From contig JBAZWG010000001.1 in assembly GCA_041660505.1 (NCBI GenBank), positions 375,183 through 439,182 on the forward strand: a stretch of 64,000 nucleotides of DNA. The letters are read 5' to 3'. Numbering within the stretch: the stretch's first letter is position 1; the number at the start of each line of letters is the position of its first letter. A program made the position numbers and the translations under genes. This DNA comes from Minisyncoccota bacterium (GTDB lineage: Bacteria; Patescibacteriota; Minisyncoccia; Phycocordibacterales; JACRKE01). The notes beneath the pieces were generated by a model, which saw nothing but the letters and a program-made list of their open reading frames with translations, searched no databases and was not told the DNA's origin. Positions 60,338 to 64,000 of the stretch are shown here, one piece after another.

Positions 60338-62449
60338 ATGCAGAATAATCATCAAGAGTTGAATCCGGCACAAGCCGAGGTGGCCTCATATCTACGAGGG
60401 CCGCTTTTGATTGTGGCCGGCGCTGGCGCAGGCAAGACCAAAACCATTGCGCATCGCATTCTGAACCTTATACAGTCCGGCATACCAGCACACCAAATAC
60501 TGGCAATAACTTTTACCAACAAAGCGGCGAAAGAAATGCGGGACCGCGTCCTGCATCTTATTCAATCCGAATCAGCCAAACTTTCAACTCCCTTCGTTTC
60601 CACCTTCCACTCCCTCGGCGTTTATATAATAAAAGAACAAGCATACCGTCTTGGCCTCACGCGCTACTTCACCATTTATGATCAAGACGATTCTCTATCC
60701 GCTATCAAGCGCGCGCTAAAAAGCGAGGGGCTTGACCCGAAACAGTATGAACCAAAGCGCCTGCAGAACGCCATCTCGCGAGAGAAAAACAATCTGGTTA
60801 CGCATGACTTATATTCAGAACAACATTTGGGTGAATATTGGGGCGATATCGTAGCCAAAGTCTGGAAAGCGTATGAAAAGATTTTAGAAAAAGATAAAGC
60901 CCTCGACTTCGATGACTTGATTGTGAAAACAGTCTGGCTCTTTGAGAAATTTCCTGAAGTGCAAAAATATTATGCCAACAAATGGCACTATATACATATA
61001 GACGAGTATCAGGATACGAACGTGGCGCAGTATGCGCTATCGCACTTGCTCGCAAAATCACATAGGAATATCTGCGTGGTCGGAGACACCGATCAAGCCA
61101 TCTACGGTTGGCGCGGAGCAGATTATCAGAATATTCTCAAATTCGAGAGTGAGTATCCTGACGCGAAGGTAGTCTTGCTCGAGCAGAACTATCGCTCGAC
61201 ACAGACGATACTAGAAGCGGCGAACAGCATAATAAGCAAGAATACTTTACGCAAAGAGAAGAATTTATTTACGGCGAACGCCAAGGGCGAGCAAGTTACA
61301 ATCTACCAAGCGGGGGATGGCCCTCGCGAGGCTCATTGGGTAGCCAAGAAATGCGAGGAATTAATTAGAGGCCGAGGTGAGTCCTCCGGTAAAAGCGGAG
61401 GTCTCTCCTCGGCCACAACGGGCATAAACCCCAATAATATAGCCATATTGTACCGAATGAACTTCTTGTCGCGCTTGTTTGAAGAAGCTTTCCTGACGCG
61501 CGGAGTGCCATATCATTTGCTCGGCACAGCCTTCTACTCGCGCAAAGAGGTTAAAGATACCCTAGCCTATATCCGCCTTGCGCTTAATTCTGAAGACACG
61601 GCAAGTTTATTGCGTATTATAAATGTGCCGGCACGCGGGATAGGCGATGTAACAGCAGAAAAAATCGTAGTGGGCAAAGAAGATGAGCTCCCGGCAAGCA
61701 TGCGCGACAAACTTTCTAGCTTCCGCAGTATTCTTGCAGATATTAAAGCAAAGTGCTTGAGCGAGACACCGTCTAACGCCGTGCGCTATGCGATAAAGAG
61801 AAGCGGGATAGAAGCGATGTATGCTGATGGTAAAGAGGAAAGCGAAGAGAGACTGGAAAACGTACGCGAGCTCGCAACCCTTGCTACGAGATATGACAAC
61901 CTCACCCCCGGCCCCTCTCCGAAGGAGAGGGGAGAACTAAATGACGCCCCCTCCCTTTCGGGGAGGGGGATGGGGGGCGAGGTGACCGCGGGCATCGAAA
62001 AGTTTCTAGAAGACACAGCGTTGCTCTCCGATCAAGATTCTTTGATGAATAAAAAAGAAGGCGTGCGGATGATGACCGTGCACGCGGCGAAAGGTTTGGA
62101 ATTCGATTATGTATTTATCGTTGGACTCGAAGGCGACATCTTCCCGCACAGGAGGATGAACGATGACGCGAGCATCGAACAGGAAGAAGAAGAGCGAAGA
62201 TTATTTTATGTCGCGCTCACGCGCGCGAGGAAGAAAGTTTTCTTAACGCACTGTCTCATTCGCACCATCTTCGGCTCGCAGAAAATTCAGTCACCATCGG
62301 AATTTATTGGCGATATTCCGGAAGATTTAGCAATTACCGAAGGGGCAGAAAACGGCTATGCAGAGCCATTTTCCCTGCCTCGCCGACAGGCAGGTAGCAA
62401 TAGCGACGGCGAAGTGGTGATAGAATGGGATATATTTAAACGAAGATAA
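60338..62449 (+). CDS. pcrA: ATP-dependent DNA helicase PcrA/UvrD family, with two in-frame palindromic-element inserts
   Basis: Motifs Q, I (AGAGAGKT), II (DEYQDTN), III, IV, V, VI (VHAAKGLEFD). Inserts encode RGRGESSGKSGGLSSA and NLTPGPSPKERGELNDAPSLSGRGMGGEVT. Confidence 0.9.
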   Translation: MQNNHQELNPAQAEVASYLRGPLLIVAGAGAGKTKTIAHRILNLIQSGIPAHQILAITFTNKAAKEMRDRVLHLIQSESAKLSTPFVSTFHSLGVYIIKEQAYRLGLTRYFTIYDQDDSLSAIKRALKSEGLDPKQYEPKRLQNAISREKNNLVTHDLYSEQHLGEYWGDIVAKVWKAYEKILEKDKALDFDDLIVKTVWLFEKFPEVQKYYANKWHYIHIDEYQDTNVAQYALSHLLAKSHRNICVVGDTDQAIYGWRGADYQNILKFESEYPDAKVVLLEQNYRSTQTILEAANSIISKNTLRKEKNLFTANAKGEQVTIYQAGDGPREAHWVAKKCEELIRGRGESSGKSGGLSSATTGINPNNIAILYRMNFLSRLFEEAFLTRGVPYHLLGTAFYSRKEVKDTLAYIRLALNSEDTASLLRIINVPARGIGDVTAEKIVVGKEDELPASMRDKLSSFRSILADIKAKCLSETPSNAVRYAIKRSGIEAMYADGKEESEERLENVRELATLATRYDNLTPGPSPKERGELNDAPSLSGRGMGGEVTAGIEKFLEDTALLSDQDSLMNKKEGVRMMTVHAAKGLEFDYVFIVGLEGDIFPHRRMNDDASIEQEEEERRLFYVALTRARKKVFLTHCLIRTIFGSQKIQSPSEFIGDIPEDLAITEGAENGYAEPFSLPRRQAGSNSDGEVVIEWDIFKRR
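61372..61412. repeat. Family-1 palindromic element in-frame inside pcrA
   Basis: ccgaggtgagtcctcc-ggtaaaagc-ggaggtctctcctcgg. Confidence 0.85.
61900..61987. repeat. Family-2 nested palindromic element in-frame inside pcrA
   Basis: cctcacccc…cccctctcc-gaag-gagagggg…ccccctccc-tttc-gggaggggg…gaggtgacc. Confidence 0.8.
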
Positions 62450-62450
62450 A

Positions 62451-63523
62451 TTATCTTTTAAAGTTCTCCCAAAACATCACTAGCAATTTTTCGCGTAATT
62501 CGTACGCGTCAGCATGAGAGAGAACACCGAGATACGAGTTAAGCGACCCAAACAGTGCTTTCTCTGATAATATCCCGTCCTTGTATTCGGCAATTCTTTC
62601 TTCTAGCTTCCGGAATATCCGTCGCCTCGTTTTCGTTCGTAAGGTAATATGGTGTGGTCGTACGACGTAGCCTAGAAAGTCGACGCCTTGATGAAATGTA
62701 CGAAACTTTATCTTTTGTGGGTGCATTTGCAACTTCAACTTTTTGTTCAGAAAAACTTGCATTTTGTCTAGCAAATCCGCAAGATACGACTTGTCTGTTG
62801 AAACAATAATAAAATCATCGGTATAGCGCATATAATTCCTTACTTTAAGCTCATGTTTCATGAATTGATCGAACTCGTTCATATAGATATTAGCGAAAAG
62901 CTGGCTGGTGAGATTACCGATCGGCGCGCCTTTTCTACTCTCTCTCTCTCTCTCTCTCGATTACTGCTGACAGTATAACTTTCGATAAGATCTTCGAGGA
63001 GCCAGACGGCTTTTTCATCTTTAATCTTTTTCTGCAAAAGTCCGACCAGTATATCGTGGTCGATCGAGTCGAAGAACTTCTTAATATCGCACTTGAGCAC
63101 CCAGCACTGATGCGCGTTGTTTCTGCTCTCCCGCCGTAGTATCGTAGTGAGTTTCCCCACGGCTTTATGTGTTCCTTTACCAACCCTGCAGGAATATGAA
63201 GCGGGAATGAATGTCGGCTCGAAGATACTATTAAGAACTTGATATACAGCATGATGAAGGACGCGATCTCGAACGGTCGCCTTGTTAATATTACGAAGCT
63301 TGGGGTCGCGTATCCAAAAACTTTCGTATCTATCGTGCCGATATGTCTGATCACGAAGTTCACGATGTAAGGCAAAAATGTTCTGCTCCAGATTCTGCTC
63401 ATATTCAGACACGCCTTTCTTGTGTTTCTTGTCTGCCTTAAACTTGTCCCATGCAATAAACAAATTCTCGGGACTAATTATTAACTCAAAAATGTTTCTG
63501 CAAACTTTCATAAAATCATGCAA
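62451..63523 (-). CDS. Diversity-generating-retroelement reverse transcriptase (Brt-like), reading frame interrupted at a (GA)10 tract
   Basis: N part (63523-62879): NLFIAWDKF, …IPASYSCRVGKGTHKAV, LKCDIKKFFDSIDHDIL. C part (to 62451): GAPIGNLTSQLFANIYMNEFDQF (DGR-specific SQ motif 4), YMRYTDDFII (YxDD), FLGYVV. The two parts are joined in frame only if the dinucleotide tract has 11 rather than 10 units. Confidence 0.8.
62939..62958. repeat. (TC)10 / (GA)10 dinucleotide microsatellite inside the RT gene
   Basis: ttttctac(tc)10gattac; encodes (RE)n in the RT frame and sits in the loop between RT motifs 3 and 4. Confidence 0.95.
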
Positions 63524-63868
63524 GACTTAGAATTACCGATCTTCAAAAAAACGTACGATTTGTACAAGACGTTTTGTGAATTTCGCTCGCTTGTATCCAA
63601 GCAGTACAAACATACGATCTGCGAGAAAGTGGAGAATTACATTCTCGAAATCCTTGAACTAATTCTGCAAACAAACAACGTAAACAGGATTGAAAAGCTG
63701 GCACTCCTCGAGACCATGAGCCTCAAACTTAACATGCTTCGCATATTTATCAGACTAATGAAAGATACCCGTGCGATAGATATGAAAAAATATGTAGTAC
63801 TGCAAGCTGACATAGACGAGATCGGCCGTATGCTTGGCGGGTGGATCAAGTCGACGCGGGAAAAGTAG
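63518..63868 (+). CDS. avd: Avd-like accessory variability determinant (four-helix-bundle protein)
   Basis: 116 aa; C-terminus DEIGRMLGGWIKSTREK closely parallels Bordetella phage Avd (…AEVGRILGSWIARVNRK). Overall four-helix-bundle-protein pattern. Confidence 0.75.
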   Translation: MQDLELPIFKKTYDLYKTFCEFRSLVSKQYKHTICEKVENYILEILELILQTNNVNRIEKLALLETMSLKLNMLRIFIRLMKDTRAIDMKKYVVLQADIDEIGRMLGGWIKSTREK

Positions 63869-63904
63869 GAACTCCCGCGCAATGCGGGAGTTCCTTGGAC
63901 AGAG

Positions 63905-64000
63905 CTATGACTTCCGGGACGACGAGACTGCGATGTTGTTGTTGCGGTACTCGTCGGTGTCGTTGTTGACGTTCAGACCGTTCTCGTCGAAGTTGCCGAC
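63905..64000 (-). CDS. C-terminal end of a gene running off the window; AAC-codon-rich segment = candidate DGR variable repeat (or template repeat)
   Basis: Reverse frame: VGNFDENGLNVNNDTDEYRNNNIAVSSSRKS*, 8 AAC codons in 31. Followed by GC-rich hairpin ggaactcccgc-attgc-gcgggagttcc at 63868-63900. Confidence 0.5.
   Translation of the reverse strand, partial: VGNFDENGLNVNNDTDEYRNNNIAVSSSRKS

Follow-up and report, generated by a model that had tools for sequence, protein, structure and literature searches.

The window analysed here, a 64,000-nt stretch of a contig from a Minisyncoccota bacterium (JBAZWG010000001.1, positions 375,183 to 439,182 of the forward strand), ends in a diversity-generating retroelement (DGR) whose reverse transcriptase (RT) gene is broken by the simple-sequence repeat (GA)10G. 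The repeat probably acts as a switch that gates the RT, with the 10-unit allele found here as its OFF state. That slippage at this tract might switch diversification was raised in an earlier note made from the sequence alone. The DGR itself and the position of the break at the tract have stood up to analysis, and in related genomes the tract behaves like a contingency locus; from this strain only the 10-unit allele was recovered.

The RT gene occupies 62451-63523 on the minus strand and consists of two open reading frames (ORFs), of 214 and 143 aa, in different frames. Features beyond the end of the window were located on L001, a 5.3-kb Logan contig of SRR18595301 and the only other indexed contig encoding the exact protein of the accessory gene avd. 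L001 is 100% identical to the window over an overlap of 2617 nt that includes the 10 GA units, and extends 2.7 kb past the window end. The element comprises the following parts, TR denoting the template repeat and VR the variable repeat.

62879..63523, minus strand: 5' part of the RT gene (fingers and palm, motifs 1-3), 214 aa from a TTG codon; from the ORF list, an alignment to 27 homologues, Pfam RVT_1 and the Bordetella phage RT Brt (8ub7_A).
62938..62958, minus strand ((CT)10C on the plus strand): (GA)10G tract, the frameshift point and proposed switch; from frame tests at -4, -2, +2 and +4 nt.
62451..62960, minus strand: 3' part of the RT gene (motif 4 PIGNLTSQ, YTDD, thumb), in the downstream frame, open right after the TAA at 62961-62963.
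63518..63868, plus strand: avd (accessory variability determinant), divergent from the RT gene; PF22296 bAvd at 8.5e-19.
63909..64000, minus strand: TR, the 3' 92 nt of a 120-nt block (63909-64028); from TR/VR comparison and extension via L001.
Window-equivalent 64408-64527 (L001 3025-3144), outside the window: VR, at the end of the 262-aa target ORF.
Window-equivalent 64398-65186 (L001 3015..3803), outside the window: DGR target gene, 262 aa, an ORF ending in the VR.

When the frame is repaired, the RT matches RVT_1 at 1e-29. Its best match among solved structures is Brt (4e-41), with group II intron RTs behind at 1e-26, and it carries PIGNLTSQLFANIY, the motif 4 of the DGR clade (I/LGxxxSQ). 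The earlier description of a small minus-strand RT resembling Brt, split into ORFs of 214 and 143 aa and accompanied by a divergent Avd-like gene, is borne out by these matches, by the ORF list and by the bAvd profile. All 27 aligned homologues begin with MK(V/I)Y, so that the true start of the RT is probably the ATG at 63509-63511.

The upstream frame of the RT continues across the tract to a TGA at 62879-62881, and in the downstream frame a TAA lies immediately 5' of the tract on the minus strand. Both stops were found where the earlier note had placed them, and the frame change falls exactly within the tract, as it had also proposed. The window contains no second dinucleotide tract with at least five units. 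Frame tests showed that the 10-unit allele is out of frame and that 9 or 12 units yield a single RT of 352-356 aa. The length of 11 units previously suggested to restore the gene gives RERERERE* and leaves the frame broken; the uninterrupted peptide reconstructed at that time is the 12-unit version. Lengths in the wrong frame stop at a TAG directly after the tract or approximately 20 codons on at the TGA. At this locus, the number of repeat units decides the reading frame of the RT, and the intact RT ORF expected of a DGR is replaced by a gene broken at (GA)10G.

None of the frames of (GA)n contains a stop codon, and each encodes alternating Arg-Glu; in-frame changes of length therefore merely lengthen the loop. 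In the alignment to 8ub7_A the tract-encoded peptide forms a 12-residue insertion directly before DEGVGIPIGSLTSQ of Brt, which is gapped at this position. In an AlphaFold model (mean predicted local distance difference test score, pLDDT, 85) residues 187-194 (SNRERERE) are the sole segment with a pLDDT below 50, consistent with a disordered surface loop before motif 4 that would tolerate changes of length. That the split RT might work as two polypeptides was ruled out. The stretch from the TAA to PIGNLTSQ lacks a start codon, and the first Met follows motif 4, so no separate C-terminal protein containing motif 4 can be made. The called ORF of the 3' part (62451..62882, 143 aa) begins at the Met of NIYMNEFDQ. 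An identical 143-aa product is called on L001, and versions of 126 and 156 aa are called on a 719-kb contig annotated by NCBI as Candidatus Paceibacterota, probably the group of the host as well. These cluster mates were considered as further alleles and rejected, being merely alternative start calls on that one contig.

The second repeat was found by extension past position 64000. Over the 120-nt block, 24 of the 33 TR adenines differ between the two copies against 2 of the 87 other bases (Fisher p ~1e-15), which identifies the window copy as the TR and the distal copy as the VR. The VR lies approximately 500 bp further on, at the 3' end of the protein-coding target ORF, and no further copy of either repeat occurs within the 64-kb window, in keeping with the earlier expectation that the partner lay outside it. 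The window copy had previously been taken for the C-terminus of a minus-strand gene on account of its AAC codons. The count of 8 AAC codons within the last 31 codons before the stop at 63905-63907 is correct; the frame that holds them is open for 57 codons only and has no ATG, and what was read as a gene end is the AAC-rich TR. The 20 nt at 63909-63928 are GC-rich, are identical at the VR end and resemble the IMH/IMH* pair (initiation of mutagenic homing). The VR has thus undergone adenine-specific diversification, and judged from its sequence the DGR is complete, with a target that was diversified at some past time. The 262-aa target protein gave no significant Pfam match. The G+C content of the target gene is 64% and that of the TR 56%, compared with 41-50% in the RT gene, avd and the neighbouring genes.

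The occurrence of the tract elsewhere was determined by scanning GTDB representatives, one genome per species, for (GA)7 followed by 3-33 nt and then by back-translated PIGNLTSQ. A tract at the same RT loop was found in at least 120 species-level genomes. Among the matches listed, nearly all belong to the candidate phyla radiation (CPR), including Saccharibacteria, Paceibacteria, Berkelbacteria, Doudnabacteria, Wolfebacteria, Uhrbacteria, Peregrinibacteria and others; the same pattern had no match in the viral contigs of IMG/VR. Tract length at these loci, of which at least 120 were found, spans 15-68 nt (median 22 nt). The 823 kb spanning the loci listed contain just one further dinucleotide tract of at least seven units, a scarcity that marks the RT tract as a site-specific feature of the loop. 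This other tract, a (CT)8 at L041 991-1006, lies a few bases from the RT tract of the same contig.

Loci were assigned to frame classes according to whether 150 or more codons upstream of PIGNLTSQ could be read in its frame, as found or after the addition or removal of GA units. The 120 loci listed were distributed as follows.

In frame: 27 loci.
Repaired by adding one unit: 48 loci.
Repaired by removing one unit: 40 loci.
Unclear (contig ends or extra lesions): 5 loci.

Of 115 classifiable genomes, 88 (77%) are therefore out of frame by one unit. The three frame classes are nearly equal, the in-frame class being somewhat rarer than one third (binomial p = 0.03). At 115 of the 120 loci any break lies only at the tract, with more than 150 open codons on one side of it and approximately 135-160 on the other.

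Other repeats occupy the same loop in some relatives. One has (CA)8, its RT being out of frame (L226 ~990-1010, Logan SRR22388014). At a locus from the Rifle aquifer (L215-L225) a run of G residues is present, as G10 in ten contigs, which are out of frame, and as G9 in one, which is in frame across the loop; apart from this G, the contigs do not differ over 1.2 kb. Because the RT of the latter locus has a further break, at the N-terminus, and the length of homopolymers is easily miscalled, the G9/G10 pair is treated as weak evidence. The presence of different repeat chemistries at one position suggests that it is mutability, rather than the Arg-Glu sequence itself, that is maintained. When mapped onto a rough neighbour-joining tree of 178 C-terminal halves, the presence of the tract requires at least 21 changes, compared with approximately 47 when labels are shuffled, indicating that the tract is clustered on the tree yet has been gained or lost many times. 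A set of 80 metagenome loci that appeared nearly all intact was set aside as a tract-less control because the loci had been ranked by best tblastn segment, a ranking that favours uninterrupted genes; the lack of breaks outside the tract in the tract-bearing genes served in its place.

Split RTs of this kind are numerous. With the 143-aa piece as query, several hundred RT fragments were recovered; the 120 matches listed span 136-232 aa, and 56 of them are exactly 143 aa long and start at the same Met. The three closest relatives of the window RT (73-78% identical) are known only as C-terminal fragments. Their tracts, 33, 21 and (with an interruption) 14 nt long, are out of frame without exception. 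Among these four out-of-frame sequences, the proportion of non-synonymous differences (pN) is 0.08-0.17 in both halves of the gene against a proportion of synonymous differences (pS) of 0.6-0.9, which is near saturation, and the corresponding rate ratio (dN/dS) is approximately 0.1 or less both upstream and downstream of the tract. The low ratio downstream of the tract suggests that this frame has been kept as coding over a long divergence, despite all sampled alleles being out of frame, and that out-of-frame RTs bearing the tract are not pseudogenes.

The tract is unstable in length within groups of closely related sequences. Pairs of loci with flanks 97%, 90% and 88% identical have tracts of 29 and 23, 68 and 35, and 21 and 55 nt, respectively. 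One protein cluster includes at least three tract alleles (...YEREREQTLF..., ...YEREREREREQTLF... and a version in another frame) with identical C-termini. The contigs L060 and L079, which come from separate co-assemblies, match over 4.86 kb with a single GA unit as their sole difference. This pair was rejected as a clean ON/OFF pair because both RTs carry an in-frame TAG that reassignment of UGA would not explain. Decay of the element may be under way in these contigs even as the tract goes on varying in length.

The most revealing case is a second locus from the Rifle aquifer, encoding an RT of 356 aa (P0252) that is 57% identical to the window RT and shares a protein cluster with split versions. 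Eight contigs from different samples cover it. Three have 13 units and are in frame, two have 12 units and three have 14, these five being out of frame; otherwise a single-nucleotide polymorphism is the only difference in the RT and avd part. ON and OFF alleles of the RT are thus present in one population. The TR (L240 1479-1596) is identical in all four contigs that reach it. The VR (L240 978-1095) of the in-frame contig L239 differs from that of the three out-of-frame contigs L240-L242 at 16 positions, all of them TR adenines. By its sequence this locus resembles what would be expected of a live DGR gated by a repeat, with the link between tract and VR drawn from very few contigs. Length variants, in-frame alleles among them, accordingly exist in relatives, where the earlier note had proposed to look for them; counts for the strain of the window gave 10 units only.

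Together with the locus described above, these data suggest the following mechanism. In a chromosomal CPR DGR ordered on the minus strand as target gene with VR (outside the window), TR, avd (on the opposite strand) and RT, slipped-strand mispairing at replication would add or remove GA units in the loop before motif 4. In-frame lengths would give a tolerated, longer loop, and in the other two classes translation would end within approximately 20 codons. The tract would in this way gate RT synthesis and hence adenine mutagenesis of the target gene. In the OFF state a diversified VR would be frozen, and rare ON descendants would diversify it again. In the genome of the window, loss of one unit or gain of two would turn the element ON; switching in this strain, and selection for the switch itself, are what the relatives lead us to expect. 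On a wider scale, we lean towards the view that a conserved contingency switch gates many DGRs across the CPR, as a (GA)n tract in most cases and as (CA)n or poly-G in others, that most populations are OFF and that rare slippage re-arms hypermutation. It is likewise somewhat more probable than the contrary that the window is one OFF-state example of this CPR-wide switch, a form of two-tier evolvability in which one stochastic mutator controls another.

Several observations weigh against a switch of this kind. No second tract allele of this strain was found in the collections searched, in which only 10 units occur; a metagenome scan returned no RT above 62% identity, the best full-length homologue being 62% identical. 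In two other populations (P0152 and P0204) the tract is invariant, at 8 and 9 units, both out of frame, in all 10 contigs retrieved for each, which indicates that switching at the consensus level is not frequent everywhere. At the Rifle locus of P0252, the association between the ON allele and a distinct VR depends on the one ON contig extending as far as the VR. Additional lesions are present in some RTs that have the tract, namely the TAG of L060 and L079, which lies at 1111-1113 at a conserved Leu position (…NFV*RGDITKFFD…), and the N-terminal break at the poly-G locus; the tract may at times lead to the death of the gene. Finally, consensus sequences alone do not separate correction at the RNA level from switching at the DNA level.

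This last point bears on a rival explanation in which the break is bypassed during expression. RNA polymerase or the ribosome would slip on the GA tract, every DNA allele would give some in-frame product, making OFF alleles leaky and the DNA frame almost neutral, and the tract would serve as an attenuator of expression. The near-uniform distribution of frames among the matches listed (27:48:40 over 115 genomes) fits this explanation, as do the strong purifying selection on both halves in out-of-frame lineages and the two populations fixed out of frame across many samples, and a 2-nt realignment would be expected to keep the RNA:DNA hybrid paired in a tract of at least 14 nt. However, to our knowledge transcriptional slippage is established for homopolymer runs and not for dinucleotide repeats, and the tract is alternating GA, with neither an X_XXY_YYZ heptamer nor a homopolymer run of at least 8. 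The two shift classes are both common (48 and 40 loci), and a ribosomal frameshift in one direction could not rescue them both; given this and the lack of a canonical slippery site, such a frameshift is unlikely. Changes of length do occur in DNA, including an in-frame allele in the same population as out-of-frame ones. Bypass at the RNA level is therefore regarded as rather unlikely to explain the tract, although it is compatible with switching in DNA and the two may coexist; slippage at replication would be the main route.

It is also conceivable that the tract is a mutational hazard without function, an AGA/GAG-rich loop that has expanded until frameshifts kill the RT. The split genes would then be young pseudogenes and the DGR in the window would be dead. 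The out-of-frame state of this strain and of its three closest relatives, the 77% of classifiable genomes among the matches listed that are out of frame and the additional lesions at some loci are what such decay would produce. It would not be expected to confine the break to the tract at 115 of the 120 loci listed, to leave dN/dS at approximately 0.1 or less in both halves while synonymous sites approach saturation, to place three types of repeat in the same loop or to yield at least 21 gains and losses of the tract on the rough tree. At the Rifle locus, moreover, an in-frame allele and fresh, adenine-only VR differences stand beside both OFF alleles. Decay without function is accordingly considered improbable.

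An artefact of assembly or sequencing, in which the 10-unit call is wrong and the true allele is in frame, is very improbable: dinucleotide repeats do show PCR stutter and some of the scanned genomes are long-read assemblies, but the window and the independently assembled L001 agree across the tract over 2617 nt, the NCBI and JGI calls on the 719-kb contig are also C-terminal fragments, a 21-nt tract is far below the read and k-mer lengths used, and in other populations a single out-of-frame count recurs in all ten contigs of each, across different samples and assemblers, a reproducibility that excludes assembly noise.

The switch reading, then, remains the favoured one, and the remaining features of the locus concern the gene layout and its hairpins. 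The earlier note had described avd and RT as overlapping and their arrangement as atypical. With the RT starting at the conserved ATG, the two genes stand back to back with approximately 6 bp between them and do not overlap, and a divergent avd directly upstream of the RT with the TR beyond avd is present at 87 of 89 evaluable tract-bearing loci. A survey of CPR DGRs (Wu et al. 2018, Nucleic Acids Research, PMC5758913) gives, in the passages searched, a 'B3' architecture for 90% of its CPR set. The layout seen here is probably this 'B3', an equation of ours, as those passages do not define the term.

Between the 3' ends of avd and the TR, a repeat search located a perfect, GC-rich inverted repeat of 12 bp whose loop measures 5 nt (63867-63878 / 63884-63895). 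It directly adjoins the stop codon of avd, follows the TR block by approximately 13 nt and is present in the minimum-free-energy fold of the TR transcript; a possible function is that of a bidirectional terminator, part of the 3' structure of the TR RNA, or both. A GC-rich hairpin had been noted here before, as an 11-bp structure 3' of a VR. The hairpin is real but, since the AAC-rich element is the TR, it follows the TR and the end of avd. A different GC-rich 11-bp hairpin, unrelated in sequence, occurs approximately 50 nt after the VR block (L001 2948-2977). No Rfam match was found across the 5.3-kb locus.

Two further hairpins were observed at 61905-61975 on the plus strand, within the UvrD/PcrA-like helicase ORF at 60338..62449: CCCCTCTCC-GAAG-GAGAGGGG and CCCCCTCCC-TTTCG-GGGAGGGGG. 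Both are GC-rich and are translated in frame as ...PGPSPKERGELNDAPSLSGRGMGGEV..., and the local G+C content is approximately 0.55 against approximately 0.47 nearby. They look like a small palindromic insertion in the coding region.

How cells time the mutation of a DGR target is poorly understood, as is the cost of unrestrained diversification. For the lineages richest in DGRs, a switch within the RT gene that is heritable, reversible and stochastic would offer a straightforward answer: the population would keep a working receptor variant while a few cells would always be able to diversify it again. Pipelines that demand an intact RT ORF miss or mis-score many CPR DGRs, approximately three quarters of the sampled tract-bearing loci being split. 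DGRs and contingency loci are each known, and their combination is new as far as the full-text literature searched shows. The earlier suggestion that phase-variable control of a DGR was undescribed agrees with that literature, in which no repeat-gated or phase-variable DGR RT, and neither the tract nor its frame statistics, is described; Paul et al. 2017 was outside its coverage and a passing mention there is possible.

The DGR of Bordetella phage BPP-1, with Brt, bAvd, a TR and a VR in mtd, resembles the element described here in the clade of its RT, an accessory protein of the bAvd family and adenine-specific differences between TR and VR. In both, the target ORF ends in the VR, the ends of TR and VR share a GC-rich segment and a GC-rich hairpin stands downstream of the VR. 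Unlike the phage element, for which a hairpin is given only at the VR in the passages searched of Wu et al. (PMC5758913), the present DGR also has one after its TR. It further differs in having avd on the opposite strand between TR and RT, in residing on a CPR chromosome and not in a phage, in a target without a recognisable C-type lectin or Pfam domain, and in an RT gene that a simple-sequence repeat interrupts within a 12-residue loop missing from Brt. The DGRs of CPR and DPANN organisms in the same survey come from the same host group, and the occasional TR/VR differences at bases other than adenine seen here are noted there for CPR elements; frameshifts are mentioned for VRs only and not for RT genes in the passages searched.

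Until the study of Benler et al. (2021, PMC8008677), according to its authors, DGR RTs had been predicted as single ORFs. In the gut phage Quimbyvirus described there, the DGR RT is encoded in three overlapping frames, and two programmed ribosomal frameshifts are proposed. That RT, too, is not a single ORF yet accompanies adenine-specific variation of the VR. A repeat tract is not among its reported features, whereas here the break lies at a repeat of variable length with in-frame DNA alleles in relatives.

Intragenic repeats that control expression are familiar from contingency loci such as the CT repeats in outer-membrane protein genes of Helicobacter pylori. Phase variation by an intragenic repeat has also been described for the (AG)12 tract in a type III methyltransferase gene of Mycoplasma mycoides (PMC3498834). 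The locus described here is similar to these simple-sequence contingency loci in that an intragenic dinucleotide repeat sets the frame, with stops nearby in the wrong frames, and its homologues show length polymorphism among otherwise identical sequences and ON and OFF alleles in one population. In contrast to them, its tract lies mid-gene in a loop of a catalytic protein and not near the 5' end, and spans many CPR classes in place of one pathogen species. The gated gene, moreover, encodes neither a surface antigen nor a methyltransferase but the polymerase of a second, targeted hypermutation system.

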